In this document: in pieces, positions 3,818-23,234 of the stretch | How positions within the stretch are numbered: position 1 is the first letter of the stretch | How the letters are laid out: each line of letters begins with the position of its first letter | From: a virus | IMG/VR virus record: IMGVR_UViG_3300035208_007474 | DNA: 27,422 bases | Strand: one strand, 5' to 3' | Translations under genes and position numbers: made by a program | The notes under the pieces: model-generated | Databases searched by the model: none | What the model was told of the DNA's origin: nothing | Seen by the model: only the letters and a program-made list of their open reading frames with translations

Positions 3818-4462
3818 ATGACATCAGTGGCTCAAAATAAGATGGTTATAGGGTTGGTAGGCGGAATAGCCAGTGGTAAAACTATGATAGCGGAGTATCT
3901 TTCTCGTAAAGGTGCCACTATTTTTAATGCCAGCGTAGAAACCAGAAAAGCCTTAAGCAGTAAGGAAATGGTGGAAATGATTTTCGCTCAGTGGCCAGTT
4001 ATAAAAGCCACGGCGGTTATACAGGGTGTTACGGACATAACGATTTTGAAGAAGGAGCTTGCTAAAATTGTCGAATCTGACGACAACGAGCTTGCCTTTT
4101 TAGAAGGTCTTTTGTTCCCGATTGTTCGTAATCGCATGGAGAAGTTCGTTCATGTTATAAAACAAGGTGTGATTGTTATTGACGCCCCCTTGTTGTTCGA
4201 AATCGCTTGTGAAAAATATTGTAATGAGATTTGGTTCATTAACATGCCGTTGAAAGAGCGTTTTGCTCACTATATCAGACGTTTTGTCGGTGATGATATC
4301 GAAATCATACGCAAGGATTTTAAACTGCGTGAAGCTCGTCGTATGTCACTTCTTGAAAAAATGCGACGGTCAACTTTTCAAATCCCCAATAGAACAGGTC
4401 AGCTTTATACGACGTGGAGGACTGTCGATAAATTTTGGAATAGAATAATTACCAAATTGTGA
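3818..4462 (+). CDS. Dephospho-CoA kinase (CoaE) family P-loop kinase
   Basis: VIGLVGGIASGKTM matches CoaE IGLTGGIGSGKST; LLFPIVR / VVIDAPLLFE / RRFV-IRKD blocks are collinear with CoaE. Substrate assignment is uncertain. Confidence 0.55.
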   Translation: MTSVAQNKMVIGLVGGIASGKTMIAEYLSRKGATIFNASVETRKALSSKEMVEMIFAQWPVIKATAVIQGVTDITILKKELAKIVESDDNELAFLEGLLFPIVRNRMEKFVHVIKQGVIVIDAPLLFEIACEKYCNEIWFINMPLKERFAHYIRRFVGDDIEIIRKDFKLREARRMSLLEKMRRSTFQIPNRTGQLYTTWRTVDKFWNRIITKL

Positions 4463-5790: not shown

Positions 5791-5819
5791 TTTACAATTG
5801 CTTGTTGCCTAAATACAAT
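5791..5819 (+). promoter_or_regulatory. sigma70-like promoter TTTACA-N17-TACAAT for clpX
   Basis: Hexamers at 5791-5796 and 5814-5819; RBS GGAG 9 nt before ATG 5844. Confidence 0.5.
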
Positions 5820-5843
5820 GGGTAAAAGAAGGAGTGAGTGTTT

Positions 5844-7115
5844 ATGGCAAAGACAACCGAAGCAACTAAAGACAAAGACGTATGTAATTTTTGTGGTAAG
5901 TCGTGGCAGAAAGCAGGCGTAGGGCAGCTTGTGGAAAGTAAAATTGCCAAGAAAAAAGGACTTCCCAATGTGCGTATTTGTGCCAATTGCATAGCGATGG
6001 CAAATAACCTGTTGCAAGCCGAGCGACAGCAACGTGTAAAAACAGACAGCGATAGAGTTCTTAAAGCTCTTCCGTCTCCAAAGAAAATCGTGGACCATCT
6101 AGACCAGTATGTAATAGGGCAAGATGCGGCCAAGCGTAGTCTGGCTATTGCTGTTGTTAATCATTACAAACGATTAGTGGCAGAAACAAGCGAACAAGAT
6201 TCAGATGTACAATTGGAAAAATCCAATATTCTTATGATTGGTCCCACAGGTTGTGGCAAGACCCTTTTGATTCAAACATTGGCTAAAATGCTTGAGGTTC
6301 CATTAGCCATTGGTGACGCCACATCTTTGACAGAAGCCGGATATGTTGGAGATGATGTTGAAAATTTGCTTTTGCGATTGATTCAAGCCGCAGATAACAA
6401 TATTGAATTAGCACAGCGTGGAATTATTTACATTGACGAAATTGATAAAAAACGAAAAACTGGTGGTAATGTTTCTATCACAAGGGACGTGAGTGGCGAG
6501 GGTGTGCAGCAAGCTTTGCTTAAGATTATCGAAGGTACTACCGCTAATGTGCCGCCTCAAGGCGGTCGAAAGCATCCTGAGCAAGTATGTATCCCATTTG
6601 ATACTCGTCATACACTGGTAATTTGTGGTGGTACGTTTGTCGGTTTGGAAGATATAATTATCAATCGTATCGGGCGATGTGGTTTTGGTTTCGGTGTAAA
6701 ACCGACAGAATCCACTGAAACCCAAGATAATATTTTGGCTCGGGTAACTCCACAAGACCTCGTTGAATTTGGTATGATTCCCGAATTTATTGGGCGACTT
6801 CCCGTAATCACTCATGTGACATCATTGGACGAAGATGCGTTGTGTAGTATTTTAACTGAACCCAAAAATGCTTTAATTCGTCAATATCAGAAACTATTTG
6901 ATATGGATGGAGTAAAATTAGTGGTCGAAGATAATGCGCTAAAGGCAATTGTCAAAGCCGCTAAAATAAAAGGAACTGGTGCAAGGGCAATGCGTGGTAT
7001 TCTGGAAGAAGTAATTTCTCCCGCCATGTTTGATTTACGTTCGATGGCCGGTAAAACCTACACTCTCACAGAAACCATTGTTCAACAAATTCTTGAAAAT
7101 AATAAGGCAGCATAA
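5844..7115 (+). CDS. clpX: ATP-dependent Clp protease ATP-binding subunit ClpX (N-terminal C4 zinc-binding domain + AAA+)
   Basis: CNFCGK...CANC zinc finger; Walker A GPTGCGKT; Walker [10 protein letters not shown]; ClpX-family conservation along the full length; I chose the ATG at 5844 over the GTG at 5838. Confidence 0.9.
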
Positions 7116-7868: not shown

Positions 7869-8273
7869 ATGACGATTTTATTTATATATGGTACGTTAAA
7901 ACGTGGATTTCATAATCATTGCCTATTAGATGGGCAAACATTTATATCCGTGGCTTTCACTAAGTCGATATATAGAATGTATGATTATGGTCATTTTCCT
8001 GTTATGGTTGTGGACATGGACGGCGTAAATATTCACGGGGAATTGTGGGAAGTGAATGATTTTTGTTTAAAGCAATTAGACAGACTAGAAGGCATCCCAC
8101 ATTTTTATGACAGATTGCCTGTTGAATTACTAGCCTCACTTCGATGTACCGGACGCCATCGCCGCCCGAAGGCCAAGGTTCATAATATTAAAGCTGAAAC
8201 TTATATCTGGCAGGGAGAAGTAGTTGGGTTAGAAGATTGTGGCCATAAATGGATTAAGAAGGCTAGGAAATAA
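7869..8273 (+). CDS. Gamma-glutamyl cyclotransferase / AIG2-like family protein
   Basis: N-terminal IYGTLKRG (YGSL-type motif), GELWEV, LDRLEGIP..YDR, all typical of the GGCT/AIG2 fold. Confidence 0.65.
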   Translation: MTILFIYGTLKRGFHNHCLLDGQTFISVAFTKSIYRMYDYGHFPVMVVDMDGVNIHGELWEVNDFCLKQLDRLEGIPHFYDRLPVELLASLRCTGRHRRPKAKVHNIKAETYIWQGEVVGLEDCGHKWIKKARK

Positions 8274-8458: not shown

Positions 8459-8776
8459 ATGGAAACAATTACCACTCAAGAGCAATTTAATGAAATCACA
8501 TCACAGGGCGTTTCGCTAATTGATTTTGCGGCTAGTTGGTGTATGCCTTGCAAAATGATGGCCCCATTGTTAGATGACTTAGGTAAAAAATTTGAAGGTA
8601 GGGCTAGATTTGCGACGTTAGACGTAGATGAAGCAGCGAAAGTGGCCGTTCCTTTTAATATATCAGCGGTCCCCACTATCATGATTTTTAAAGACGGCAA
8701 TATGGCTGACAAGCTGGTGGGTATGCAAAATCAAGAAACCCTAGAAACTGCTGTAGAGGCAGTGCTTAAAAAATAG
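8459..8776 (+). CDS. trx: Thioredoxin
   Basis: 105 aa; WCMPCK active site (WCxPC); thioredoxin length and fold pattern (..PTIMIFKDG..); RBS AAGGAA. Confidence 0.9.
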   Translation: METITTQEQFNEITSQGVSLIDFAASWCMPCKMMAPLLDDLGKKFEGRARFATLDVDEAAKVAVPFNISAVPTIMIFKDGNMADKLVGMQNQETLETAVEAVLKK

Positions 8777-10117: not shown

Positions 10118-10786
10118 ATGAGTAATTTTAAACGATATGTCGAAGAAGGAAGAGAATGGCGTGGGAAATATCCCAAGACATATCATTTCAGTTTTTCGCC
10201 AAATCTTCAAAATGATGACAGGATGTTAGAAGATGACAATATCCTTGTTGGAAAGAATGTCGTTGTAAGCGAAAAATTAGACGGCGAAGGAACCGGGATG
10301 ACCAGAATTGTATGTCACGCTCGTTCTTTGGATTCTAGGGACCATCCTTCCAGACATTGGGTGAAAGCGTTGCATGCTTCTGTTAAACAAAACATACCTG
10401 AAGGTTGGCATTTTTTTGGGGAAAATTTATTTGCCGCCCATTCGATTCGATACGATAAATTGCCGACATATTTCTTTTTGTTTATGATTGTTAATGATAA
10501 ACAAATGTGTTTGTCGTGGCAGGATACAAAAGAGTGGGCAGAATTGCTCGGACTACAAACCGTACCTGTTCTTTATGAAGGCCCATGGGATATTGAAAAA
10601 GTACAAGCTTGTTACACAGGTCAATGCCCTTGGGGAGAAGCCCAAGAGGGATATGTGGTTCGCAATGCGGCAATGTTTCCGATTAAAGATTTTTCACTTA
10701 ATATGGGGAAATGTGTGCGATACAACCATGTTCAGACAGGTGATTTTTGGATGAAAAATTGGGTTCAGAATAAATTGTCCAAATAA
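10118..10786 (+). CDS. ATP-dependent RNA ligase, Rnl2-like nucleotidyltransferase domain
   Basis: Motif I VSEKLDGEGTGM (KxDG), motif III FFGENLFA, motif IIIa YFFLFMIV, motif IV EGYVVRN and motif V GKCVRY, collinear with the T4 Rnl2 N-terminal domain; strong RBS AAGGAGG. Confidence 0.65.
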   Translation: MSNFKRYVEEGREWRGKYPKTYHFSFSPNLQNDDRMLEDDNILVGKNVVVSEKLDGEGTGMTRIVCHARSLDSRDHPSRHWVKALHASVKQNIPEGWHFFGENLFAAHSIRYDKLPTYFFLFMIVNDKQMCLSWQDTKEWAELLGLQTVPVLYEGPWDIEKVQACYTGQCPWGEAQEGYVVRNAAMFPIKDFSLNMGKCVRYNHVQTGDFWMKNWVQNKLSK

Positions 10787-10983: not shown

Positions 10984-11892
10984 ATGACGGCACGATTTAT
11001 AATGACAAGGATGAAATTGAATATACGAAATAATATGCCTAGTTTTTTTAGATATCCGGGTGGAAAATCTAAATTAAGAATTCAAATCACAAATGCTTTG
11101 AATAAATGGTCTTCGGATACCACAGAGTATAGGGAGCCATTCTTTGGTGGTGGGTGCATTGGAATAGAGTTTCTAAAGTGTAATCCAAACATTAAAGATA
11201 TTTGGATTAACGATAAAGACGATGGTATCTCTTGCTTATGGACATCAGTGATAAATTATCCAGAGTTGCTAAAGGATTTGGTTCATAATTTCAAACCGTC
11301 TGTTGAAAAGTTCGATGAATTTAAAAGTAAGCTTATTGCGGCACCAATTCTAAAGTCAGACGAGGAAGTTGTGCAATATGGTTTTATGAAATTAGCCATT
11401 CATCAAATATCATATTCTGGATTGGGAACAAAATCTGGTGGTCCTTTAGGTGGTAGAGAACAAAAGTCTAAATATCTTATTGATTGTCGATGGTCGGTTG
11501 ATTACATATGCAAAAAAATAGATTTATTGCATGATATGTTTTCAAAATTATCTGTCAAGGATAAAAAGTGTTCTTGTTTAGATTTTGCCGATGTCATTGC
11601 CGACGCTGGAAGTGCCGTTATATATCTTGACCCGCCATATTATGTAAAAGGAAATGACTTGTATCAAGTCGGCTTCACTCAAGAAGACCATTCTCGCCTT
11701 GCTGACTTATTAAAAAAAACCCATTTGTGGGTTTTGTCTTATGACGACTGTGACGAAATTAGAGAATTATATAAGTGGGCACATATAAAAGAAATTCATG
11801 AAGTGAATTACAGTATCACCGCATTAAAAGATAAGCAAACGGGCAATAGATTGTCTCGTGCTAAAACAGAATTATTGATTACACCATTTTAA
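10984..11892 (+). CDS. dam: Dam-family (D12 class) N6-adenine DNA methyltransferase; the true start may be the internal ATG at 11014 or 11035
   Basis: FFRYPGGKSKL (Dam FLKWAGGKxxL), EPFFGGG (motif I), DPPY (motif IV); overall T4 Dam / DpnIIA / EcoDam architecture. Confidence 0.8.
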   Translation: MTARFIMTRMKLNIRNNMPSFFRYPGGKSKLRIQITNALNKWSSDTTEYREPFFGGGCIGIEFLKCNPNIKDIWINDKDDGISCLWTSVINYPELLKDLVHNFKPSVEKFDEFKSKLIAAPILKSDEEVVQYGFMKLAIHQISYSGLGTKSGGPLGGREQKSKYLIDCRWSVDYICKKIDLLHDMFSKLSVKDKKCSCLDFADVIADAGSAVIYLDPPYYVKGNDLYQVGFTQEDHSRLADLLKKTHLWVLSYDDCDEIRELYKWAHIKEIHEVNYSITALKDKQTGNRLSRAKTELLITPF

Positions 11893-12635: not shown

Positions 12636-13739
12636 ATGGAAAACGAAAACAAAATTTCGTCGCAGGAATTGGAGCAAAGGCAGCAGAAGGTAGTTCGTGG
12701 AAAAGCGGTGTGGCAGCAGCGATTGCAGCAAGTTTTGTGCCCAAAACTGCAAAATATTTATGGCAAGCTGCATGCCGAAGAATTTGTCAAAAAACTGGTG
12801 GGGGAAAAAGGAAAGCTGCTGACGCTGAAAACCAAAAACGCCAGACTGCCGCTTTCTAGTATCAGCTTTTCACGCTCTAATCCTCGTCTTGATTTGGACG
12901 GACACGGTGATGTGAAGTCGCAAGAAGACTTATATAAGTTCATTTTTGAACATTACAGCATCGACAAGCTTGCGTCAGGTATTAAGCAGTCGGGCGATAC
13001 GCAGGAAAGTATTGTTGTTAATTCCGATGGTGAGAATTTGGAAGGAAATCGGAGACAGTGTGCTTACATGTATCTGTATTGCATGACGGGTGATGAACAC
13101 TGGGCAACTATTCCGGTCGAAATGTTGTCACCCCAAACACAGGAAGCGCAAAAAGTAGCTTTGTTGCTTGTGAGACACGCAGCGACAGGCTTGGCTTGGA
13201 CACCACCGATGAAGGCTCGGTATTGTAAGAATGTGATGAAGAATCTTGGTTTATCATCCGAAGAAGTTGGGAAGCTTACTGGATGGGGGACTAAAGAAGT
13301 AGAGAAGTATTTGAGGGCTTATGGCTTTCTACTACAATATCAGAAGACTACCGGGGACAAGTCCTCCCCAGAGAAATTTTCTTTTTTTAACGAGATTGTT
13401 CATTCACCAAGATTGCAGCGAAGAATGACTGAGGGGAAGATGGTAGGTAAGAAGAAGCCTGTTCTTCCTTGGATTTTCGAGAACATCAAAAATAATCGTA
13501 TCTCTGAGTGTCGGCATATTCGGAAGCTCCCAGATATTTTGGGGTGTCCAGAGGCGATTACCGTGATGGAGAAGGAAGGTGTAGAAGCAGCACTTGGTAT
13601 GCTTGGGGAGGGCGATGGCAGACTTCTCAAAACTCTTAATCGTTGCTGTGCTTTGGTGGCTAAGACTCAGGACTTCACCGCTACCGACAAAAAAGCAATG
13701 AAAAAATTGCGGGGACAGCTTAATGGAATTTTGGATTGA
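12636..13739 (+). CDS. Hypothetical protein with a ParB-like N-terminal nuclease domain (IVVNSDGENLEGNRRQCAYM..IPVEML)
   Basis: The pattern resembles ParB box II (G-x-RR-x-A) preceded by an IVV..DG block; RBS AAGGAG. Confidence 0.45.
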   Translation: MENENKISSQELEQRQQKVVRGKAVWQQRLQQVLCPKLQNIYGKLHAEEFVKKLVGEKGKLLTLKTKNARLPLSSISFSRSNPRLDLDGHGDVKSQEDLYKFIFEHYSIDKLASGIKQSGDTQESIVVNSDGENLEGNRRQCAYMYLYCMTGDEHWATIPVEMLSPQTQEAQKVALLLVRHAATGLAWTPPMKARYCKNVMKNLGLSSEEVGKLTGWGTKEVEKYLRAYGFLLQYQKTTGDKSSPEKFSFFNEIVHSPRLQRRMTEGKMVGKKKPVLPWIFENIKNNRISECRHIRKLPDILGCPEAITVMEKEGVEAALGMLGEGDGRLLKTLNRCCALVAKTQDFTATDKKAMKKLRGQLNGILD

Positions 13740-13762
13740 AAAATTTAATTTTTTAATCTTTA

Positions 13763-13789
13763 AAAAAGCCGCCTTATGGCGGCTTTTTT
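13763..13789 (+). terminator. Rho-independent terminator (AAAAAAGCCGCC-ttat-GGCGGCTTTTTT)
   Basis: 6-bp GC stem flanked by A6 and T6 (bidirectional). Confidence 0.7.
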
Positions 13790-13879
13790 AATTTGCTAGG
13801 CGGGACTAGAATGCTGTTTCCCAATAATTAAATTGTACATGGGGAAGATGTGGATGAAAAATTTCCGAAAGGTGATAAA

Positions 13880-14464
13880 ATGAGTAAATTACAAGATGAC
13901 ATAGTTCAAACATTTAATCAAGGAATGAGTATCGTAGAAACAGCAGAAAAATATGGAATGTCTTATGAAGTTATTTATTGCATAATCACTAAGGCTATCG
14001 GTAATGCGGCAGTTAAAGAACGAAAACGGGATAGAAATAGGTCGGTCATACAAGATTTTACTGACGGTATGAGTCGTTCTAGTTTATGCGATAAATATGA
14101 TTTGTGTTGGGTTACTATTTCTAATATTCTTAAGGCTACTATGAGTAAATGGTCCATCAAAAGGAATGAATTATTAAATCGCAATTTACAAATCATGCAA
14201 GATTACCAACATATTAGTAGACAAGAATTAATGAACAAATATAACTTAAGTTGGACTAGACTTCATGAAATTATCAGTAAAGCAGGGGGAACGGTTAAAC
14301 ATAAACAATATTCATTGCAGTTGTCCTTAAATCTTGGTTTTAAAATTTTGAAAAAGTTATTGTTGAATAAAGATAGTCAATCTATTAGCGAAGAATTAGG
14401 TTGTTCTGTTCAATACGTAAGCTGTATTAGAAAATTGGGACGGGAAAATGGGCTGATAAGTTAA
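13880..14464 (+). CDS. DNA-binding protein with four tandem ~45-aa helix-turn-helix repeats
   Basis: Repeats IVQTFNQGMSIVETAEKYGMSYEVIY / VIQDFTDGMSRSSLCDKYDLCWVTISNI / QIMQDYQHISRQELMNKYNLSWTRLHEI / KLLLNKDSQSISEELGCSVQYVSCI; RBS AAGGTG 8 nt before ATG 13880. Confidence 0.55.
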   Translation: MSKLQDDIVQTFNQGMSIVETAEKYGMSYEVIYCIITKAIGNAAVKERKRDRNRSVIQDFTDGMSRSSLCDKYDLCWVTISNILKATMSKWSIKRNELLNRNLQIMQDYQHISRQELMNKYNLSWTRLHEIISKAGGTVKHKQYSLQLSLNLGFKILKKLLLNKDSQSISEELGCSVQYVSCIRKLGRENGLIS

Positions 14465-14484
14465 TTTTTGTCCATTTTTCTGCT

Positions 14485-14512
14485 TTACAACCATAATTCT
14501 TAAAGTTAGAAT
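14485..14512 (+). promoter_or_regulatory. sigma70-like promoter TTTACAAC-N-TAGAAT for the PARP gene
   Basis: gctTTACAACCATAA motif shared with the promoter at 20600. Confidence 0.45.
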
Positions 14513-14546
14513 GCCTTTGTAACGATTGTTATTTAAGAGAATAGAC

Positions 14547-16142
14547 ATGGGTATTAAACTTGAAAAAAACACGTTTCCAGTAAGCCATGGGGCAGAAGAT
14601 TTCCAGTGTTTCGGTCCTCCTGCCACAAAAGATGGCGTATTTGAAGGGACCATGATTGCTGATTGTGGTTGCTTTACTCAGGATGGGAAAGATTCGAATA
14701 AATATTATCACAGTGCGGTTGTTCAGTCTAAATGTAATCAAAAATGGTACGTTTATTTTGAGTGGGGACGAGTAGGGGCAAATCATCCATCATTTCAATT
14801 TACTGATTGTTCAAATAAGTCTGATGCCGAACATGATTATTGTGACCAGCTTCATCAGAAAAATGATAAGCGTGGCGAATGGATTCAACATCCATCTTTG
14901 GGTAAAATTCTTCGAGCGAAAACAGGAAAAGATTGTTATTTGGTAAGGCCGCAGGCCAAAAGAAGTACCGGCCTTCCAGATGCTAGAACCATTGTTCACA
15001 ATGAAGGTGTTTCTGTTGTTAAAACATCCAAGCCAACTGGCAAGGTTTCGACGGTCAATGTAGACAAAGCCACACTTGAGTTAATGCGGGATTTGAATGT
15101 TGGTACAGTTAATTATACCAGAGCTTCTATGGCTGACGCCGCAATTCCAACTCAAGTAGCTTTGGATGAAGCTCGTTCTATTTTGATTGCAGCACAACAA
15201 CGTGTTTCCAATGTGGGTGATGATGTCGAAGACCAAATCAAAGATACGGAATTGAGGCATTTAACGGCACTGATGTATGGCCGAATTCCTAAGAAGAAAG
15301 ACCGCAACGCCTCACCGGATAAATGGATTCTATCAGCGTCTAATATTGGTACGTGGAACCTAGACATTGATGCATTTGAGTCGGCTTTAAAAACTGCCGA
15401 TATGGGACAAGACCAAGCAGACCCATTTGATGGCATGCGACTTCAGATGCGGCATTTGTCTAAAAAAGGTAACCCAATTGGTGAATTTATTCATGGTTGG
15501 GCACCGAGTGCAACACGTAATATGCATAATTATTTGAAGGAAAAATTGCAAATAATTAATGTATGGGAGATTGAACGTGAAGGTGATGCGGCAAAGATAG
15601 CTAGAGTTCAAGCTGCAATTGCTGCACAAAATTGGAAACCGTCAGAAAGACCGCTGCATCAACCTGCTCGGTCGGACCTTTCTAGAAACATTGCTAAGAT
15701 TTATGCCAGAACTAACACATGTTTACTTTTTCACGGCACACGTACTGTAAATGTGTCGGGTCTGCTGCGTGAATCTTGGCGATTACGTAATAATCTGGTT
15801 GGGGTGCAACTTACCGCTGCTATGTTCGGTCCGGGTGTTTATTGGGCTGATGATTGGAAAAAGAGCGCAGGTTATACCAGCATGTCCGGTGCATATTGGA
15901 CAAAGGGCGGCGGTGGTATTGGTGGTCGTGGTGCATTTATGTTTATAGCTGATGTTGTGCTTGGTGCATCTTATCTTGCCCCAAGAGCAGAAGGTTTTAC
16001 GAAACCACCAAATGGTTATCATTCGGTTTTCGGCAAGGCCAATTTTACAAAGGGTAGTTATGGCGAAATTGCCAATAACGAATTTATTACTTATAACAGC
16101 GACCAGTGTGTGGCCAGATATTTAGTAGAATTCGCTAGGTAA
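14547..16142 (+). CDS. Poly/mono(ADP-ribose) polymerase (PARP) homolog: N-terminal WGR domain, helical region, C-terminal PARP catalytic domain with an H-Y-E triad
   Basis: WYVYFEWGRVG (WGR signature); catalytic LLFHGTRTVNVSGLL (H-G-T), GPGVYWADDWKKSAGY (Tyr), NEFITYNSDQ..YLVEF (Glu, as in PARP1 YNEYIVY); I set the start at ATG 14547 downstream of the promoter. Confidence 0.8.
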   Translation: MGIKLEKNTFPVSHGAEDFQCFGPPATKDGVFEGTMIADCGCFTQDGKDSNKYYHSAVVQSKCNQKWYVYFEWGRVGANHPSFQFTDCSNKSDAEHDYCDQLHQKNDKRGEWIQHPSLGKILRAKTGKDCYLVRPQAKRSTGLPDARTIVHNEGVSVVKTSKPTGKVSTVNVDKATLELMRDLNVGTVNYTRASMADAAIPTQVALDEARSILIAAQQRVSNVGDDVEDQIKDTELRHLTALMYGRIPKKKDRNASPDKWILSASNIGTWNLDIDAFESALKTADMGQDQADPFDGMRLQMRHLSKKGNPIGEFIHGWAPSATRNMHNYLKEKLQIINVWEIEREGDAAKIARVQAAIAAQNWKPSERPLHQPARSDLSRNIAKIYARTNTCLLFHGTRTVNVSGLLRESWRLRNNLVGVQLTAAMFGPGVYWADDWKKSAGYTSMSGAYWTKGGGGIGGRGAFMFIADVVLGASYLAPRAEGFTKPPNGYHSVFGKANFTKGSYGEIANNEFITYNSDQCVARYLVEFAR

Positions 16143-16192: not shown

Positions 16193-16220
16193 TTTACAAC
16201 AACAAGTTTAAAAGTATAAT
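16193..16220 (+). promoter_or_regulatory. sigma70-like promoter TTTACA-N16-TATAAT
   Basis: Hexamers read directly; preceded by an ATGTACGTAAAAGTAGTGAAG element related to the TGTACA motif family. Confidence 0.5.
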
Positions 16221-16268: not shown

Positions 16269-16523
16269 ATGAGTCATTTTTATGGTACATTGAACGGCAA
16301 TCGTGGCGAGGCAACTCGTTGTGGGTCTAAAGATAGTGGCATGACAACGTATTGTGCTTCGTGGAGCGGAGCGGTGCATTGTCAAGCGCATTATAATGAA
16401 AAGACTGATGAAGATTGGGTTTTAGTTGAGCTTGTACCTTGGCATGGTCATGGTACAAATAAAGTTTTATACGATGGCCCAATTAGCGGGGCCGAAGATG
16501 CTCTGAAAAGACAAGCGTCTTAA
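16269..16523 (+). CDS. Hypothetical protein (84 aa)
   Basis: RBS AAAGGAAAA; higher GC than its neighbours. Confidence 0.5.
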   Translation: MSHFYGTLNGNRGEATRCGSKDSGMTTYCASWSGAVHCQAHYNEKTDEDWVLVELVPWHGHGTNKVLYDGPISGAEDALKRQAS

Positions 16524-16539
16524 TAAAGAAAGGGATATT

Positions 16540-17196
16540 ATGTGCAACATTGGTTCCGAAATAGCAGCAATTATTCGTCAAGTAATTACGGAGAAGGTAG
16601 ATTCCGATATAATGTTTACTGCCTTCGATGTGAGTAGAGAAGTGCAGATTCGACTTCAAGCCGCTGGCCTTTCATTTGTGCGGCATTCGAACATGAAAGA
16701 AGTTGTTCATGAAGAAATGCAGGGGTATATGCAGCAAGGCGTATATCAGCGGCAATTAGTCGATGTTGGTGCGCCGGTCCAAGCATTTGTGTATTATCCC
16801 GCTGGCGCAGACCCCCTTCAATATGTGTCAGGAAATATAGTACATATAAGTGCGCCTGCCATTGTGCCCGTGCCCGCCGTAACGGATTCAACCGATGATG
16901 GGAACCAAGGTCGCTCACCAGATGCAAGAGGAACGCTGGCTGTTCCGGCTGTGCTTGTTCGTGCCGCTGGTATGATGCCGGGCGACAAGTGTTACGTGTA
17001 TGCAGACACCGACAAAACCGGAACTCCATTTTTGATTATTACTGGCATGGCAACAGGCAAAAGTCTCGCTGAATATACCGTGGATGCGTACAACAACGTT
17101 CGCATTACACAAAAGCAATTAGACGCTGGCGGATTGACAGAAGATAGTTTTTATTTTGAAAGTGATGGGTCGTCGGTGATTGTCAAGGCTCTTTAA
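16540..17196 (+). CDS. Hypothetical protein; C-terminal region resembles an AbrB/MazE-type swapped-hairpin segment (RGTLAVPAVLVRAAGMMPGDK)
   Basis: RBS AAGGGA; GC-rich, which explains the long antisense ORFs across it. Confidence 0.45.
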   Translation: MCNIGSEIAAIIRQVITEKVDSDIMFTAFDVSREVQIRLQAAGLSFVRHSNMKEVVHEEMQGYMQQGVYQRQLVDVGAPVQAFVYYPAGADPLQYVSGNIVHISAPAIVPVPAVTDSTDDGNQGRSPDARGTLAVPAVLVRAAGMMPGDKCYVYADTDKTGTPFLIITGMATGKSLAEYTVDAYNNVRITQKQLDAGGLTEDSFYFESDGSSVIVKAL

Positions 17197-17268: not shown

Positions 17269-17351
17269 AAGGTAGAGATGAGATTATGGCACAGCACAGG
17301 TAGTAGTGATTCGAAATGACTTTTGTAGCATGGCAATGGAAGAAAAGAAAA

Positions 17352-18053
17352 ATGAAACTAGATAACAAGTTTTTTGAAAGGTTCTTTCCGAAATCAACGG
17401 ATTCTGTTGATGAATTACGAAATATCTTGGCAGTAGCTCGTCAAACTATCGGTCATCAACAAGAGTTAATGATTCGGCTTTCAGCAGAACCACTTCTGTA
17501 TGCGACAATTCTATCTGTTAGTAATAAAATTGACCCAAAGAATTTTGCAATTGGTGGATGGGTTTTAGTGACAGACAAGGAAAGTCCTTTTTTTCATAGA
17601 ATCGGGCAAATTGTTAAAGCCGTTGATGGAGAAGTAACGGTCGATTTTTACGGTGCAGAAAAAACCCATAATTTTAAAATTGGTATCAAAAGTGAGTCGC
17701 AAATTAAGTTGTTGTTTAAGAATGACGGACGTTTTGCCGTCGTTACATATGGAAACAGGATTTTCGAAGTTTGGGGAAATGTCACAGAACAGGTCAAGCC
17801 CGGTTATATTGCGAAGCTAAACAAACACACATTGCAGATTGTGGATATCATCCCGCCTACTTGTATGGGTGAAGTGGCAAAAGTCATAAAGCGTTTGGAC
17901 AACAGGCATGTGCTTTTAGACCTTGGACACAAGTATAGAGCAGTTATCTGCGAATTTGTTGTTAAAAAAGGCGATGAGGTCTTAATAGACCCAAGTCATT
18001 CTGTGGTTACGAAGATATGCGGTCGCATGAAAACAGCACGGAAAACACGATAG
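17352..18053 (+). CDS. Hypothetical protein (start 17352 preferred; 17316 is possible)
   Basis: GGAAG about 11 nt upstream of ATG 17352. Confidence 0.5.
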   Translation: MKLDNKFFERFFPKSTDSVDELRNILAVARQTIGHQQELMIRLSAEPLLYATILSVSNKIDPKNFAIGGWVLVTDKESPFFHRIGQIVKAVDGEVTVDFYGAEKTHNFKIGIKSESQIKLLFKNDGRFAVVTYGNRIFEVWGNVTEQVKPGYIAKLNKHTLQIVDIIPPTCMGEVAKVIKRLDNRHVLLDLGHKYRAVICEFVVKKGDEVLIDPSHSVVTKICGRMKTARKTR

Positions 18054-18111
18054 TTGCAATTTATTAAAAATTTGTTAAAATCGCAGTCCTATATCGAAGG
18101 GACTGCCTTAT

Positions 18112-18393
18112 ATGAAATATTTTCTTGAGTGTGGTGATATCAGAATTTCAATAAACGGACCAGACGAAAATACAGTAGCTCGTCAGTTGGTAAAGCAGAT
18201 GTTGATGGAACAGGCTGATATGGGTCAAATAGTTATGGTGAGCGAAAAGGATTTTTGTTGTAAACGAAGAAATCCTGTTTTGTTAATAACACAAGGATTA
18301 ATTAATGACATCCAAACCAATACCTTCTCTCCACCGCTTGGATTGTTTAACTCCTTCCGAACGATGGATTCGATTGTGGAAAGCAACATTTGA
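18112..18393 (+). CDS. Hypothetical small protein; overlaps the Nudix gene by 89 nt, so its reality is uncertain
   Basis: ORF-track entry; a hairpin at 18083-18106 lies immediately upstream. Confidence 0.3.
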   Translation: MKYFLECGDIRISINGPDENTVARQLVKQMLMEQADMGQIVMVSEKDFCCKRRNPVLLITQGLINDIQTNTFSPPLGLFNSFRTMDSIVESNI

Positions 18394-18922
18394 TGCTGGA
18401 CGAATATGGACATTCGTTAGCAGAAAAGAAAAACCTGAAATCATAACTGGCATATCTTCTGCCGATGCCGTTGTCATTATTGCTTCTGTCTTGCAGTCGG
18501 GGATTCCAAAATTAGTAACCATTAAAGAATATCGGCCAGCTATTGGGGCGTATGAATATGGATTTCCTGCTGGTCTGATTGACGGTGGTGAAAAGCCCGA
18601 AGATGCCGCAGTAAGGGAACTCAAAGAAGAAACCGGATTGGATACGGTGCATATTTATCAGGTAACCCCGCCGTTGTATTCGTCTTCCGGCCTTACAGAT
18701 GAATCCACTATTTTTGTTTATCTTGAAGCAACGGGTACGCTCTCCGCTCATAATCAGGAAGAAACCGAAAATATTGAACCAATGCTATTAGAGGCAAAAG
18801 ATATTATCAATTTATTAGAGCAGAAGGAAAAATTTGCTGAGGGAAGAATTTCGTGTAAATATTGGCCGATTGCTCAGATGTTTGCTACTACTGGTTTATT
18901 ATGTTCGAGGGAAAAAATATGA
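18305..18922 (+). CDS. Nudix hydrolase, ADP-ribose pyrophosphatase-like
   Basis: Perfect Nudix box GLIDGGEKPEDAAVRELKEETGL (Gx5Ex7REUxEExGU); the N-terminal extension plus the PAG..E core follow the ADPRase/NudF layout; RBS AAGGA 7 nt upstream. Confidence 0.8.
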   Translation: MTSKPIPSLHRLDCLTPSERWIRLWKATFDAGRIWTFVSRKEKPEIITGISSADAVVIIASVLQSGIPKLVTIKEYRPAIGAYEYGFPAGLIDGGEKPEDAAVRELKEETGLDTVHIYQVTPPLYSSSGLTDESTIFVYLEATGTLSAHNQEETENIEPMLLEAKDIINLLEQKEKFAEGRISCKYWPIAQMFATTGLLCSREKI

Positions 18923-19098
18923 TACAATTAGCCGAAGTTATGGGTTGGGTATCATGGATATTTATAGGAGTTTGGACAGTAATAGTTATTTGTTGTTTTT
19001 GGATTATAAAAATCATCGAGGAAAGTAATACGCAAAGTTTTAAAAAACGTGAGAAATTCTTTGAAGAAATAAAGAAGATAAAAGAAGGAAATAAATGA
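18919..19098 (+). CDS. Small single-pass membrane protein (59 aa, TM helix WVSWIFIGVWTVIVICCFWII)
   Basis: ATGA overlap with the Nudix stop; a hydrophobic stretch followed by a basic/acidic tail. Confidence 0.45.
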   Translation: MIQLAEVMGWVSWIFIGVWTVIVICCFWIIKIIEESNTQSFKKREKFFEEIKKIKEGNK

Positions 19099-19319
19099 TA
19101 ATTATTTTGCATTCGGGTACCGAGGAAATGGCAAAGTTGTCCCCTCCCAAGAAGTTGAGTAAACGAAGCAAGGCTGATATGGAGCTTGTTATTCGAAACT
19201 TGTGGACGGAATGGATTACTCCCGAATTTGTTTCAGAACCAGATTTTGTAACATGGCTCATTGAAAAAAAAGGTTGGAAGGTTCCAAGAGAAAACGTTTT
19301 TAACATCATTGTCAAATAA
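19095..19319 (+). CDS. Hypothetical protein (74 aa)
   Basis: ATGA overlap with the upstream gene; ends 1 nt before the ARH gene region. Confidence 0.45.
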   Translation: MIIILHSGTEEMAKLSPPKKLSKRSKADMELVIRNLWTEWITPEFVSEPDFVTWLIEKKGWKVPRENVFNIIVK

Positions 19320-19367
19320 GTGGGGGAAACTAGTTTACAGGTCATCTCAAAAGGATATAATCTTGAT

Positions 19368-20360
19368 ATGGAAATGAAGGATAAAATCCAAGGTATGTTT
19401 TTAGGCACGTTTATCGGTGATGCGCTCGGTTTTCCTGTAGAGGGCTGGTCTTCCGAACGGATTGCTGAAACATATGGTCGTATCATTAGTTTTGTGAAGC
19501 CTGATAAACATAAGTGGTTCGGTGAAAAAGAAGTTGGTACTCCTACTGACGATTGGCAATTAACAAAAGCTGTTGCCGAATCTTTAATCATTAGTGGAAT
19601 GGATATGGATGCGATAGCTGAAGCACATAAAGCCGCATTCAACGAATCAATTGTTGGATGGGGCGGCACAACCTCTAGTGCTGTCCGAAATTTACTAAAT
19701 GGAGCAACGTGGGAAAAGTCGGGGCTTCCTATTGGGATGGGAAATGGATGTGCCATGAAGATTGCTCCCGTAGCTGCTTTAGTCGCCGCTAAGTATCAAT
19801 CTGGTAAAGTTGTAGATTTTATTGTCAAATTAACCTGCATGACTCATCGTAATGTCTTAGCCGTTTGCACGACTTTGGCTCAAGCAGAAGCAATTTATTA
19901 TTGTTTAACTGCCCAAAAATTTAACGCCATCAAATTTGCTAATCGAATTATTGTCGGCAGTGTGCTGGGGGAATTCTTGAGCGAAGATATTGTTACCGAA
20001 GGTATGACTATTGATTTTCCTGATACCACGCAACGATTGAAGTTGTTGAAGGATTATAAAAAATACGACGACCAGAGAATTATCAAAGAATTTCAGGGAA
20101 CAGCTTACGCATACAATAGCATTCCGTTTTCCTTGATGTTTTTTATCAGAAATCCGAATTCTATTAATGCTATGTACGATGTAATTGCGGCTGGTGGCGA
20201 TACAGATACAAATGCTTCAATGGTTGGCTCACTTTTAGGTGCGTTGAACGGAGTTGACATATTTCCAATGGAATTGGTGAATCAAATGTCTTCAAAGTAT
20301 CGGGACGAAGTGACAGATGTCGCTAATCGTTTTTACAACAAATTTTTTGAGGAAAAATAA
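19368..20360 (+). CDS. ADP-ribosylglycohydrolase (ARH/DraG family)
   Basis: GMFLGTFIGDALGFPVEG, GTPTDDWQLT and AAGGDTDTNASMVGSLLGALNG are the three hallmark ARH metal-binding blocks; I chose ATG 19368 over the GTG at 19320. Confidence 0.85.
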   Translation: MEMKDKIQGMFLGTFIGDALGFPVEGWSSERIAETYGRIISFVKPDKHKWFGEKEVGTPTDDWQLTKAVAESLIISGMDMDAIAEAHKAAFNESIVGWGGTTSSAVRNLLNGATWEKSGLPIGMGNGCAMKIAPVAALVAAKYQSGKVVDFIVKLTCMTHRNVLAVCTTLAQAEAIYYCLTAQKFNAIKFANRIIVGSVLGEFLSEDIVTEGMTIDFPDTTQRLKLLKDYKKYDDQRIIKEFQGTAYAYNSIPFSLMFFIRNPNSINAMYDVIAAGGDTDTNASMVGSLLGALNGVDIFPMELVNQMSSKYRDEVTDVANRFYNKFFEEK

Positions 20361-20557
20361 TGACAATGTTACAATGGAAACAACAACTGGAACCGTCTTT
20401 GATGGGCATTCATGGAGTCTTAAATGTCGAAACAACACTCAGAGGGCTAACCGTTAACGTATTCAGACCCACAGACCAGCAAAAAGAGGCTATTTACGCC
20501 ATTTTTGAGGCAAATGCCCCTGATTTGCCGTTTAAAATTGCATCGAGTAAGTGTTAA
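20360..20557 (+). CDS. Hypothetical protein (65 aa), TAATG overlap with the ARH stop
   Basis: ORF track; translationally coupled to the ARH gene. Confidence 0.4.
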   Translation: MTMLQWKQQLEPSLMGIHGVLNVETTLRGLTVNVFRPTDQQKEAIYAIFEANAPDLPFKIASSKC

Positions 20558-20599: not shown

Positions 20600-20626
20600 T
20601 TTACAACCATAAGCCCCGATTATAAA
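20600..20626 (+). promoter_or_regulatory. sigma70-like promoter TTTACAACCATAA-N-TATAAA
   Basis: Shares the gcTTTACAACCATAA string with the PARP promoter at 14485. Confidence 0.4.
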
Positions 20627-20683
20627 ATGCCAATAGTCGAACGGGATGTTCCCGTACCAAACGACATATAAGGAGATGCAAAA

Positions 20684-21604
20684 ATGGCTACGAAGAAAGC
20701 TGCCTCGAAGAAAGTCGCTGTTGCCCCTGCTATCGCTATTCCCGCTGTCCGTACCACTGGAAAAACTGCTGCGCCTGCCAAGCCCATGTCTGCGGCTGAT
20801 ATGTTGAATCAACTCGCTGGTGCTAAACCTGTTGAAAAGAAGTCAACCGCTGCCAGTAAAGGTCGCCCGGCTCTTGTTCTTACGCCTGATGCCGAAAGTA
20901 CCTTTAAGAAATTTATTCCGGCTAAGGTACTGTACGACCAGTTTGAGTCCAATTTAACCGCTGTTAAGGATGAACTCAAAACTCAACTTTTTGTTCTCTA
21001 TGCCCATACCATGTGGATTCAGAAAAGCCAGCCTGCTAACCCCAAGCTTCTCGTTCTGAATGACAAGGGCAAGTCTGACATGGAATCGTTGTATGTCATT
21101 CAGGCTAAATTTAAAGTGCAAGCTGACAGTGCCGAAGTTGCCACGCAGTTGCTAGTTGGCGTGGGTTTGTCTCAAGACAATGCTGAAAAACTTGTGGAAC
21201 ATGAGTTGGATTTTACGCCGTTCACCGGACTCCGCAGTTTCAATGAGTTGGTCAAGGGCCATCGTGAAGGCGAAGGTTGGGTGGAAGCAACCCCTGCTGA
21301 ACAGGCTGTTGCTCAGAAACTCATGTCTCTTGTTATGGGTCAGCAAGTCGCCCCTATCACGCCGGAAGAGCGTCAGATTATTCTTCGCAACGAGCCGCAG
21401 GTTGTCGTGCGGGACGGGTTCCTTGAACGTGTTACGACTTATTGCGAGAGTGAAGAACAGGTTCTTGGTGTGTTCCAAGTTGTGCAACCTGTCAACTACC
21501 CCAAGGGTGCGAAGTTTGCGGTGTCCGATGATGCGGAAACCCGCAACAAGCGGCTGGTGGCCGAGTGTGCCAATATTTTGAACCAGCAGCTTAACATTAA
21601 ATAA
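20684..21604 (+). CDS. Hypothetical protein with Ala/Lys/Pro-rich disordered N-terminus; GC-rich
   Basis: Perfect RBS AAGGAG 7 nt upstream; 306 aa. Confidence 0.6.
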   Translation: MATKKAASKKVAVAPAIAIPAVRTTGKTAAPAKPMSAADMLNQLAGAKPVEKKSTAASKGRPALVLTPDAESTFKKFIPAKVLYDQFESNLTAVKDELKTQLFVLYAHTMWIQKSQPANPKLLVLNDKGKSDMESLYVIQAKFKVQADSAEVATQLLVGVGLSQDNAEKLVEHELDFTPFTGLRSFNELVKGHREGEGWVEATPAEQAVAQKLMSLVMGQQVAPITPEERQIILRNEPQVVVRDGFLERVTTYCESEEQVLGVFQVVQPVNYPKGAKFAVSDDAETRNKRLVAECANILNQQLNIK

Positions 21605-21615
21605 TGTAATTCATA

Positions 21616-21649
21616 GTCCAAGACTCGCCTTGTGGCGAGTCTTGGACTG
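21616..21649 (+). other. Perfect 15-bp stem + TTGT tetraloop (AGTCCAAGACTCGCC-ttgt-GGCGAGTCTTGGACT) with no U-tract
   Basis: Read directly; located between the stop at 21604 and the RBS at 21655. Confidence 0.6.
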
Positions 21650-21667
21650 ACAACAAAGGAGAATTAT

Positions 21668-22072
21668 ATGAAATCACAATTGACCACGCAGCAGTTAGAG
21701 CGAGCCGTAAATTTGTTAAAGGAGTTGGAAACGATGGGTCTGACGGTGCAAGGTTTAGCAATGACTTCCCCCTCCCCCTTTCCCTCTCGTCACAAACCCA
21801 TCGCAAGTATTGATAGGCAAGCGGAAATTTCTCAAAAACTATCAGTGGGAGTTCGTGCTTATTATAGAAAAGTTCGAACAATTGCCAAGGCACAGGGTTG
21901 TTCTCTGACTGAGGCTCGCAAAATTTATCGTGAAAAAAAGCAAACAGCAAAGGCAAAAAAGGCTCATATAATTCGACGAGACTATCGGGATTATTGGCGT
22001 GATGTACACACATTGGCTCTGGCAAACAATATTTCCATTTCTGATGCTCGGAAATTATACAAAAATTCCTAG
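21668..22072 (+). CDS. Hypothetical basic protein with two copies of an S-(L/I)-(T/S)-(E/D)-ARK-(I/L)-Y motif
   Basis: Perfect RBS AAGGAG; SLTEARKIYREKK and SISDARKLYKN. Confidence 0.55.
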   Translation: MKSQLTTQQLERAVNLLKELETMGLTVQGLAMTSPSPFPSRHKPIASIDRQAEISQKLSVGVRAYYRKVRTIAKAQGCSLTEARKIYREKKQTAKAKKAHIIRRDYRDYWRDVHTLALANNISISDARKLYKNS

Positions 22073-22112
22073 TCCCCATCGTTGCAGCGGTGGTACGTTT
22101 GCCTCGGGCTGG

Positions 22113-22151
22113 ACACGCACGTTATTTTTCAACGTGCGTGTCTTTTGTTTA
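22113..22151 (+). terminator. Rho-independent terminator (ACACGCACGTT-atttttca-AACGTGCGTGT + CTTTTGTTT)
   Basis: 11-bp perfect stem plus a T-rich tail, 40 nt after the stop. Confidence 0.75.
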
Positions 22152-22259: not shown

Positions 22260-23234
22260 ATGAAATATAATCAATATAAAACATTATTCGAAGTTCTGAA
22301 GATGTTTAAGCAATATGACGTTTATTATCGTTCGCTACTTGCCTCTATCACCGAAGCTATGACGCAGACGACGAATCGTGGGGAAGGGCTTGGTGCTTTA
22401 AGCATGAATGCGTCCCAAGTAGTTGCGGAGTGGTATTGGCATAAATCAGGAAAACCTTATTATAATATTCATCCCTCATTAATTAACACATTTTCTAAAT
22501 GTACAATGGACATCCCCGCTAATCTTGTTCGTTTCCCTTTTCCAACATTTTCGATTAATTTGCCGTCACCGGAAGAAGGCAATCCGTTGATTATAAACGA
22601 GCAATATTACATTAAATCATTTTTATGTCATTGGTCAAATAATGCATCTTTAATTAATGCCGCTAGAAGTATGGGGTTAAAAACGTTAGACGGAAGAAGC
22701 GGCGACGAAAACAGAATGATAATTTGGATTGATATTGGAGAAACAGAAAAGGCATTTGATGGTAAGGACTTGCCAATTTATACTTATAGACAATTAGCAT
22801 ATGTTGGCGACGAATCAATAGATGTGGCTTTACATAAATTGCCGCCAGACGATTCCGCAAATATAGGTGTTGTAATTAATGAAGAAACAATTCTAAAATG
22901 TATAAAATTAATGATTTCTGTATGTTTTTTGGTGGAATCTAATGACCCCCTTGTATTACCTGATATTCTAGCCAAGGATAGATTTTTACTCGAAGACGCA
23001 GATGAAGAAAAATTAAAACAATTACAAGAAAAAGCCAGATTAAAAGATAAATTCGGTTGGATTATTGGTATTGAGAATGGCCGCAAAATAGCGGGTGGGG
23101 AGCATCAGCTTTCTTATGCCCATATTCGCACTGGACATTGGCATAAAGTTTTATTTGGTGTCGGCAAGAAACAGTTTAAAGTAATATGGTATAGGCCGGT
23201 GACCGTAAGGCCAGATTTGCCAATGAAACTATGA
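22260..23234 (+). CDS. Hypothetical protein (324 aa) immediately upstream of the MVP homolog
   Basis: RBS GGGAG; no recognisable motif. Confidence 0.55.
   Translation: MKYNQYKTLFEVLKMFKQYDVYYRSLLASITEAMTQTTNRGEGLGALSMNASQVVAEWYWHKSGKPYYNIHPSLINTFSKCTMDIPANLVRFPFPTFSINLPSPEEGNPLIINEQYYIKSFLCHWSNNASLINAARSMGLKTLDGRSGDENRMIIWIDIGETEKAFDGKDLPIYTYRQLAYVGDESIDVALHKLPPDDSANIGVVINEETILKCIKLMISVCFLVESNDPLVLPDILAKDRFLLEDADEEKLKQLQEKARLKDKFGWIIGIENGRKIAGGEHQLSYAHIRTGHWHKVLFGVGKKQFKVIWYRPVTVRPDLPMKL

Follow-up and report, generated by a model that had tools for sequence, protein, structure and literature searches.

The eukaryotic poly(ADP-ribose) polymerases PARP1/2, with ARH3 (or PARG) and NUDT5, make up a cycle of ADP-ribose addition, removal and breakdown, and ADP-ribosylation by PARPs of the WGR type is seen as a eukaryotic DNA-damage signal. 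Bacterial PARP–PARG pairs are also known (PMC5966428), for instance in Herpetosiphon aurantiacus and Clostridioides difficile CD160; the WGR-PARP of the former (HaPARP) is DNA-activated and makes poly(ADP-ribose) (PAR), which a partner hydrolase takes off (PMC5966428, PMC4245714). In Deinococcus radiodurans, DRB0100-DRB0099-DRB0098 form a damage-induced operon of ligase, PARG and HD phosphatase/PNK (PMC11833690). From phages, PARPs, ADP-ribosylglycohydrolase (ARH, or ARG) domains (in ~5% of jumbo phages) and Nudix enzymes are each already known (PMC4245714, PMC7824862, PMC9503650), the literature we found treating phage PARP and ARH as isolated curiosities. Here we describe a 27,422-nt stretch of viral DNA (IMG/VR record IMGVR_UViG_3300035208_007474; ‘the window’), an entire JGI metagenome contig that is most aptly seen as a piece of a huge-phage genome, in which a predicted writer (PARP), eraser (ARH) and recycler (Nudix) lie in one island amid DNA/RNA ligase genes; the arrangement recurs in related huge phages. 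On balance, we lean towards reading it as a break-responsive, reversible ADP-ribosylation module with a complete ADP-ribose cycle, tied to nucleic-acid repair. In the literature searched, we found no mention of huge phages sharing a conserved PARP-o218-AAA+-Nudix-ARH-o306 island.

Set beside the eukaryotic cycle, the island has the same three folds and predicted activities, and its PARP shares both domain architecture and H-Y-E triad with PARP1/2; it differs in its phage carrier, in an ARH nearer to MJ1187/DraG than to ARH3, and in having no detected zinc fingers, BRCT, PARG, macrodomain or HPF1-like factor. The bacterial PARP–PARG pairs likewise have a WGR-(reg)-cat PARP with H-Y-E, whereas the phage eraser has the ARH fold rather than that of a DUF2263/PARG macrodomain, is carried by a huge phage, and lies in cis with o218, an AAA+ N-domain, o306 and often a Nudix gene. 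As in the D. radiodurans operon, an ADP-ribose hydrolase is found within ligase and end-healing genes (Rnl2-like, Rnl1, DNA ligase, PNK/HD); unlike that operon, which is without a writer and has a PARG, the phage island holds its own PARP and an ARH. The KptA and sirtuin RNA-repair neighbourhoods of jumbo phages also bring an NAD+-using transferase together with RNA ligases and Nudix/ADP-ribose enzymes (PMC9503650); here, however, the transferase is of the PARP clade (H-Y-E, as opposed to the H-H-h of KptA), ARH replaces Macro/NADAR, and no 2H phosphoesterase was found among the window open reading frames (ORFs) scanned. DraT/DraG, Tre1/Tri1 and phage ART–ARG pairs, finally, link an ADP-ribosyltransferase (ART) genomically to a reversing ARH-fold hydrolase, but there the two genes are adjacent and the transferase is a mono-ART, of the R-S-E type or otherwise, that modifies arginine, whereas the predicted writer here is a regulated PARP several kb off.

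In the ORF list of the window, the + strand from 14.5 to 22.1 kb is occupied by a tight run of ORFs that begins with the PARP gene and ends with o146 (Table 1). The PARP ORF (14526..16142) matches the Pfam PARP catalytic (1.9e-19) and WGR (1.3e-08) families, with the start placed at ATG 14547, since orthologue starts align to M8 of the longer ORF. Its profile is colinear with the WGR-HD-CAT region of human PARP1 (4dqy; 1.1e-24), residues 48-106 forming the WGR domain, 217-352 the helical regulatory domain (HD) and 392-528 the ART domain; the residues of the triad (H403, Y439, E519) show no variation in 6 orthologues. By domain order and triad it fits the DNA-dependent PARP1/2/3-like clade, and is predicted to be of the break-activated type. 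An earlier reading of the sequence alone (the sequence-only reading) had placed a PARP upstream of the Nudix and ARH genes; we find it 2.2 kb from that block, with the full WGR-HD-ART architecture.

The eraser candidate spans almost the entire ADP_ribosyl_GH profile (PF03747; positions 1-286 of 287, 2.1e-50, 172.5 bits against a cut-off of 26.2; searched with ORF 19320/19368..20360) and also matches phrog_6572 (2.4e-32). The three hallmark blocks that the sequence-only reading had picked out are all present (GDALGFPVE, TDD and GGDTDTN). Across 11 phage orthologues (346-aa numbering), E41, T76, D77, D78, G292, G293, D294, D296 and N298 are invariant, with T297, T175 and H176 invariant or nearly so (at least 90%); the Asp/Thr metal ligands are thus conserved, the blocks that bear them align with their counterparts in MJ1187 and DraG, and the di-metal site is, on this alignment, complete. 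Solved relatives rank in the order MJ1187 (1.3e-23), DraG (4.7e-15) and ARH3 (4e-11). Scores fall below the NCBIfam equivalog cut-offs for DraG (TIGR02662; 80.2 versus 337 bits) and Tri1 (22.1 versus 490), so that substrate specificity is not transferable from either. The start is ATG 19368, matched by the first residue in 10 orthologues. A GTG start at 19320, which would abut the preceding TAA, is ruled out by the same alignment.

The third enzyme, the proposed recycler, carries the textbook Nudix box expected from the sequence-only reading (GLIDGGEKPEDAAVRELKEETGL), in which every fixed position of GX5EX7REUXEEXGU is matched, and a Pfam profile search returns NUDIX (PF00293) at 1.5e-14 (54.6 bits versus a cut-off of 21.1). 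Each of the 14 best-ranked solved relatives is an ADP-sugar/ADP-ribose pyrophosphatase; the closest are human NUDT5 (1.2e-14) and the Thermus thermophilus ADP-ribose pyrophosphatase (ADPRase) Ndx4 (2.9e-11), with the Mycobacterium tuberculosis ADPRase and NudE also among them. Query residues 18-139 align with these, a stretch that takes in the N-terminal swap region, the ERW/GKW motif, the arginine of YRP/FRP and the Nudix box, whilst neither R77 nor E155 varies among 5 phage orthologues, the N-termini of which favour the early start. Equivalog cut-offs are again not reached, either for NudE (ranked first at 1.3e-14; 54.2 versus 169 bits), for TIGR00052 (32.7 versus 79.6) or for NF008003 (23.3 versus 248): by these scores the protein is a relative, not an equivalog, of the curated NudE and ADP-ribose diphosphatases.

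We compared the window with ~20 related loci from uncultured huge phages (163-595 kb; cited by handles of the form L012), using iterated profile searches over all locus ORFs; the IMG/VR scans behind this set were anchored on PARP or ARH, and their source viral contigs measure 54-572 kb, mostly 163-572 kb. A recurring order is seen: PARP, o218, (o245 or a full AAA+ protein), (Rnl1 ligase), (Nudix), ARH, (o306), with parentheses marking optional members. ARH lies downstream of PARP on the same strand in 6 of the 12 informative, non-redundant PARP-anchored loci, the order being constant; conversely, in the ARH-anchored scan an orthologous PARP sits 3-9 kb upstream in 8 of 9 loci with an ARH at least 38% identical to that of the window. 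Taking all sources together, PARP, o218 and ARH occur on one strand within 10 kb in 13 distinct, though phylogenetically related, loci. The same gene order is found in two ENA/JGI contigs (L001, L005), where collinearity with the window exceeds 10 kb in both, and in a 595-kb uncultured phage (LR756511.1), which has protein-level matches to PARP and ARH ~5 kb apart on one strand. No DNA match to deposited phages was obtained for 18305-20557 with blastn in ‘distant’ mode, protein-level searches alone succeeding. Seeing the same PARP–ARH order in 13 huge-phage loci takes the link to PARP beyond the coincidence of one window.

Genes between the conserved members turn over heavily, and the conserved set persists. 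Presence of o218 tracks that of ARH, with 13 of 13 PARP+ARH loci carrying it against 1 of 6 PARP loci without ARH; on this distribution the two genes are gained and lost jointly. An orthologous Nudix gene with an intact box is found in 5 of the 13 islands (the window, L001, L012, L013, L018) and, where present, always lies upstream of ARH, either directly (L012/L013) or with 1-5 ORFs between. The proposal of a writer, an eraser and a recycler made in the sequence-only reading thus gains support from synteny, with the qualification that its recycler is optional.

Table 1. Coordinates of the features discussed, in order along the window
Feature	Coordinates	Strand	Basis and remarks
Promoter-like element	5791-5819	+	before ClpX-like gene
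Rnl2-type RNA/DNA ligase (PF09414)	10118..10786	+	Pfam RNA_ligase 2e-30
Promoter-like TTTACA-N17-TAGAAT	14484..14512	+	before PARP
PARP, predicted writer: WGR + HD + ART	14547..16142	+	Pfam, PARP1 alignment, orthologues
Promoter-like TTTACA-N16-TATAAT	16193..16220	+	between PARP and o84
o84, not conserved	16269..16523	+	phrog_5927 (unknown function) 1.5e-08, residues 1-34; codon score positive
o218, conserved putative DNA-binding partner	16540..17196	+	N-terminal winged helix, disordered linker, C-terminal MraZ/AbrB-like double barrel
o245, coiled-coil/OB N-domain of Cdc48/Mpa-type AAA+ unfoldase	17316..18053	+	ATPase part absent
o93, 93 aa, not conserved	18112..18393	+	89-nt overlap with Nudix start, other frame; absent from the gene list of the sequence-only reading
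Nudix, ADP-ribose/ADP-sugar pyrophosphatase type, proposed recycler	18305..18922	+	205 aa; Pfam, solved relatives, orthologues
TM59, 59-aa single-pass membrane ORF	18919..19098	+	hydrophobic over one segment (KD19 2.52); ATGA overlap at each end
o74, 74-aa basic ORF, lineage-specific	19095..19319	+	
Promoter-like TTTACA-N16-TATAAT	19334..19361	+	o74/ARH spacer
ARH/DraG-family ADP-ribosylglycohydrolase, predicted eraser	19368..20360	+	330 aa; Pfam, solved relatives, orthologue alignment
o65, 65-aa ORF, lineage-specific	20360..20557	+	TAATG junction with ARH
Promoter-like TTTACA-N17-TAAAAT	20600..20628	+	before o306
o306, conserved downstream partner	20684..21604	+	disordered Lys/Ala/Ser-rich N-terminal tail
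o146	21632..22072	+	last ORF of the tight run
Strong intrinsic terminator, 13-bp stem + T-run	22111..22143	+	closes block
Full-length major vault protein (MVP) homologue, 846 aa	23342..25882	+	Pfam and colinearity

Three things carry the favoured reading: the complementary predicted activities of the enzymes, the catalytic residues of which are intact, their ordered recurrence despite turnover of the genes around them, and the joint gain and loss of ARH and o218. We infer from these that what one enzyme produces is a substrate for another, as follows. DNA or RNA ends would switch on the WGR-HD-ART PARP; ends of nucleic acid are suggested as the trigger by PARP architecture together with the ligase/PNK context. 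The activated enzyme would then use NAD+ to attach ADP-ribose, singly or in chains, to a target, for which PARP itself, o218, o306 and phosphorylated nucleic-acid ends are candidates. ARH would take the modification off, freeing ADP-ribose, and Nudix, where present, would cut this to AMP and ribose-5-phosphate, both preventing a build-up of reactive ADP-ribose and recovering the nucleotide.

Several observations weigh against this reading. The phages that carry these loci are all related, and synteny extends to the neighbouring ClpX-like, o250, ligase and o85 genes, so that recurrence partly reflects shared ancestry rather than selection for linkage. Six PARP loci are without ARH, with no macro, PARG or NADAR substitute among 20 neighbouring proteins (nor was any of these domains found elsewhere in the loci scanned), and L003/L004 have ARH orthologues (48% identity) but no PARP. 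Nudix is missing from 8 of the 13 islands, making it dispensable. The conserved proline that forms part of the ADPRase signature, ~15-16 residues past the Nudix box (SPG/DPG), is replaced by serine in the window protein (YSSSGLTDE), and among the 5 phage orthologues this position is S, T, P or A, with P solely in L012; the enzyme is hence ADPRase-like rather than a proven ADPRase. As the ARH is nearer to MJ1187/DraG than to ARH3, activity on PAR is not implied. Enzymes of the ARH3 type moreover leave PARP1's own Glu/Asp esters uncleaved (PMC4245714), and there is no macrodomain here.

The first alternative we considered is that ARH and Nudix serve a counter-defence that is independent of PARP, with ARH undoing the marks of host toxins or ARTs, or degrading immune signals, and Nudix destroying the nucleotides released. 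To our knowledge, no ARH-family enzyme has been shown to cleave the Thoeris signals gcADPR or His-ADPR. ARH orthologues without a nearby PARP (those above and L190-L197) and the optional nature of Nudix speak in its favour, and the surrounding genes do resemble a counter-defence (RNA repair) island; host ADP-ribosylation is a known defence, and viral Nudix, Macro and ARG proteins have been predicted to degrade ADP-ribose derivatives (PMC9503650). Of the 9 loci in the ARH clade nearest to that of the window, however, 8 have PARP upstream, and ARH co-varies with the PARP-adjacent o218. Phage ARG domains have been argued by Iyer et al. to favour macromolecular adducts (PMC9503650), and ARH-like enzymes are inactive on guanosine-base and 2'-OH RNA adducts (PMC11833690). 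Independence from PARP would also leave its break-sensing architecture unexplained, and we regard this explanation as unlikely, if one to be taken seriously. For the narrower suggestion of the sequence-only reading, that the genes counter Thoeris or signals of the cyclic ADP-ribose type, we see no positive evidence: a comparison of the block ORFs with Pfam and PHROGs gave no match like Tad1, Tad2 or Acb1 (no dedicated anti-defence library was searched), and the neighbourhood is one of nucleic-acid repair (Rnl2-like, Rnl1, ATP-DNA ligase, PNK, Thg1). The island is most likely a reversible ADP-ribosylation module tied to repair rather than an anti-Thoeris device.

A second alternative overlaps with the repair module just named, the chief difference being the target: PARP would be an end-processing enzyme and not a protein modifier, and ARH and Nudix would clear the small ADP-ribose by-products of NAD+-dependent tRNA or RNA repair, much as has been suggested for phage systems built around KptA or a sirtuin. 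Here the position of an Rnl1 ligase directly before Nudix in L012, L013 and L018 is suggestive, as are the PNK/HD, Thg1 and ligase genes that adjoin PARP in other loci. Jumbo-phage sirtuin-2H-Nudix and KptA systems are on record (PMC9503650), and RNA/DNA ends that bear a phosphate can receive ADP-ribose from PARPs and Tpt1 and lose it again to ARH-family enzymes (PMC11833690). Yet neither KptA/Tpt1 nor a 2H phosphoesterase was found among the window ORFs scanned, both the window and L001 keep Nudix without having Rnl1, and what WGR-HD-ART enzymes are known for is sensing breaks and modifying macromolecules rather than 2'-phosphotransfer. We consider this version quite unlikely.

We also find it very unlikely that the genes form an effector with its safeguard, akin to a toxin–antitoxin pair, in which PARP would take over the host or drain its NAD+ and ARH would guard phage or host components. 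There are precedents in the ART–ARG pairs of Aeromonas phages and in the logic of DraT–DraG (PMC9503650), and phage PARPs were earlier proposed to modify host proteins as the T4 ARTs do (PMC7824862). Against this, PARP and ARH lie 3-9 kb apart with variable genes between, not as an adjacent two-gene cassette; PARP survives without ARH in 6 loci, which is hardly expected of a toxin in need of an antidote; and the autoinhibitory helical domain implies that the enzyme is regulated rather than constitutively active. Least credible of all is an adjacency inherited from an ancestral gene order with no functional link, since, for all that ClpX-like, o250 and o85 (unrelated to ADP-ribose) are syntenic too, PARP, o218 and ARH are retained whilst intervening genes turn over heavily, o218 and ARH are lost jointly, every island that has Nudix has it placed before ARH, and the three activities are biochemically complementary.

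The island offers a compact, genetically tractable candidate for a full ADP-ribose signalling circuit outside eukaryotes, and suggests that huge phages spend NAD+ on repair or counter-defence by a third route beside the KptA and sirtuin systems; its significance would be less should the enzymes prove to act independently.

The conserved partners of the three enzymes, as judged from the compared loci, are o218, o245 and o306, all lying beyond the segment 18305-20557 on which the sequence-only reading was centred. All homologues of o218 (P0133-P0150) share a Met-Cys start and have an invariant FTA-D motif, His49, Tyr85 and Tyr95; those Cys and His residues that are conserved in the N-terminal part might be sites of metal binding or modification. 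For o245, a PDB sequence search with the protein alone gave nothing useful and its own matches to TIGR03689 and PF16450 are weak; its identity rests instead on full-length AAA+ orthologues of ~555 aa at the equivalent position (L010 12340..14010, L013 14791..16470, L018 12771..14438), with the first ~250 residues of which it aligns, and which match VAT/Cdc48 (1e-87) and Mpa (3e-51) of the classic clade. The window, L001 and L005 retain solely the N-domain of this protein, the ATPase having been lost. Eukaryotic p97 extracts trapped PARP1 from chromatin, offering a possible analogy for AAA+ proteins of the o245 type. The body of o306 is well predicted (pLDDT 82); no structural relative was found for the predicted structure, and there was no match to HPF1.

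The ligase context of the island is similarly recurrent. An orthologue of the Rnl2-type ligase lies just upstream of PARP in L001, L005, L010, L013, L018, L019 and L184, with a partial match in L021; a PDB sequence search with the window protein gave nothing useful. In the window this gene is 3.7 kb upstream of PARP, the space between being filled by an insertion of Dam, two ORFans and a Mor-like regulator. An ATP-dependent DNA ligase stands beside PARP in L008 and L015, and Rnl1-type ligases occur in L012, L013, L015 and L018. A PNK-like kinase is present in L015 and L050 (with an HD phosphatase in L050) and Thg1 in L014; in loci devoid of ARH, the proteins beside PARP are likewise Thg1, DNA ligase, PNK, Rnl1 and phosphatases. 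Taken together, the loci suggest that a PARP-associated nucleic-acid repair island is general among huge phages. The repair genes near PARP span 2493..12460 in L050 (R2K ATP-grasp, PNK/HD), 12049..16535 in L015 (Rnl1, ATP-DNA ligase) and 12301..13038 in L014 (Thg1). The insertion in the window (Dam methyltransferase at 10984..11892, the two ORFans and a Mor-like 204-aa protein) is absent from L001 and L005; the 204-aa protein (13850..14464, +) combines a Mor-type activator helix-turn-helix (HTH) with several repeated HTH-like segments.

Turning to how the block may be expressed, we see five copies of the motif TTTACA-N15-18-TAnAAT in the window, all on the + strand and just upstream of genes (ClpX-like, PARP, o84, ARH and o306), against 0.32 expected by chance; none of 100 shuffles reaches five. 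The motif, TTTACA(AC)-N15-18-TAnAAT in extended form, is probably a promoter class of the sigma70 type, whether of phage or host. With copies between genes, the block looks like several transcription units running in the same direction, and transcription would probably start from several phage promoters (before PARP, o84, ARH and o306) and end at the terminator at 22111-22143. The sequence-only reading, which took transcription independent of PARP as a sign against a functional link, also joined five genes by overlapping stop and start codons. Promoter-like elements do separate the genes, though this does not refute a functional link; and overlaps hold at three of the four junctions, namely Nudix/TM59 (ATGA, 18919-18922), TM59/o74 (ATGA, 19095-19098) and ARH/o65 (TAATG, 20358-20362; TAA at 20358-20360, ATG from 20360). 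At the fourth, the ARH start at 19368 leaves a 48-nt spacer holding a promoter-like element, so that o74 and ARH are not overlap-coupled. This element ends 7 nt short of the ARH ATG, which would leave the mRNA with a very short leader or none at all.

As for the small ORFs, a score for codon usage, with the long genes as its training set, favours the annotated frame for every one of those on the + strand. Minus-strand ORFs across the block, including one of 238 aa antisense to ARH, were scored as non-coding. No convincing homologue of o84, o93, TM59, o74 or o65 was found in 22 related loci (phmmer, E<=10), four of the five matching only themselves; the best match of TM59 outside the window, a ~52-aa ORF in L016/L017 (E 0.0076), does not convince, and its match to phrog_462 is weak (1e-4). 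At the position of o65, L001 has an unrelated 58-aa ORF, and other loci similarly have unrelated small ORFs at equivalent positions. TM59, o74 and o65 are probably real genes, but lineage-specific insertions; for want of convincing homologues in related loci they are taken as fillers, and the role of uncharacterised partners given to them in the sequence-only reading falls away. The codon score of o93 is positive outside its overlap with Nudix, both frames being weakly coding inside it, and L001 shows a comparable 62-nt overlap between its o245 homologue and Nudix. That o93 might be a detached Nudix N-terminal domain, as a likeness by eye to the N-extension of the 273-aa Nudix of L012 had hinted, was rejected (BLASTP E=78). 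The 58 nt that separate o245 from o93 contain a perfect 7-bp hairpin (GCAGTCC-N10-GGACTGC; 18083..18106, +), with no T-run after it.

Past the strong terminator, 7 kb downstream of PARP and 3 kb from ARH/Nudix, lies the MVP homologue, which matches MVP_shoulder (PF11978; 3.4e-25) and Vault_3 (PF17795; 3.7e-09) and is colinear with residues 424-879 of eukaryotic MVP (4.7e-13). A single-sequence scan of IMG/VR gave no close relative, and an alignment-based scan was needed to find relatives there. The family is large, with 594 clusters (50% identity, E<1e-30), 275 stretches in IMG/VR and 522 in bacterial genomes, mostly Myxococcota. The eukaryotic MVP shoulder binds NAD+/ADP-ribose, and vaults house PARP4 with a TIR-like NADase (PMC12280208; bioRxiv 10.64898/2026.05.01.722283). 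Like the eukaryotic vault (MVP + PARP4 + TEP1 NADase), the window has a full-length MVP and a PARP, here with ARH/Nudix close by; unlike PARP4, the phage PARP has no identified MINT-like domain. One could imagine a vault-like shell that binds ADP-ribose/NAD+ at its shoulder and houses or organises the break-sensing PARP with its repair enzymes, in which case the eukaryotic vault–PARP4–NADase association would have a viral or prokaryotic antecedent. We give this functional tie a low probability, the gene lying past a strong terminator and no MVP being present in any other PARP–ARH locus compared. Of 80 viral MVP loci, 3 have a PARP no more than 10 kb away (L023, L029, L050), and of 80 bacterial ones none does, the order being PARP-MVP-o218-like in L023 and PARP-R2K-AAA+-RNA ligase-PNK/HD-MVP in L050. 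A structured RNA search of the window yielded no tRNA, vault RNA or Y RNA. It did return an RNAI-like Rfam match at 13725..13792 (+), sub-threshold (33 bits versus a gathering score of 47, E 0.013) and probably due to chance.

Of the remaining genes, a 324-aa protein (22260..23234, +) has orthologues in L001 and L005 with a precomputed Pfam match to AcrVA2-like (PF26125); the window copy itself has no Pfam match at E<=0.01. Towards the start of the window, the minus strand encodes a GDP-mannose 4,6-dehydratase and an NAD-dependent epimerase (1812..3729), and the + strand a dephospho-CoA kinase (3818..4462), a ClpX-like AAA+ protein (5838..7115), a gamma-glutamyl cyclotransferase-like protein (7869..8273) and a thioredoxin (8459..8776); these sugar-nucleotide, kinase, ClpX-like, cyclotransferase-like and thioredoxin genes form an auxiliary set typical of very large phages.

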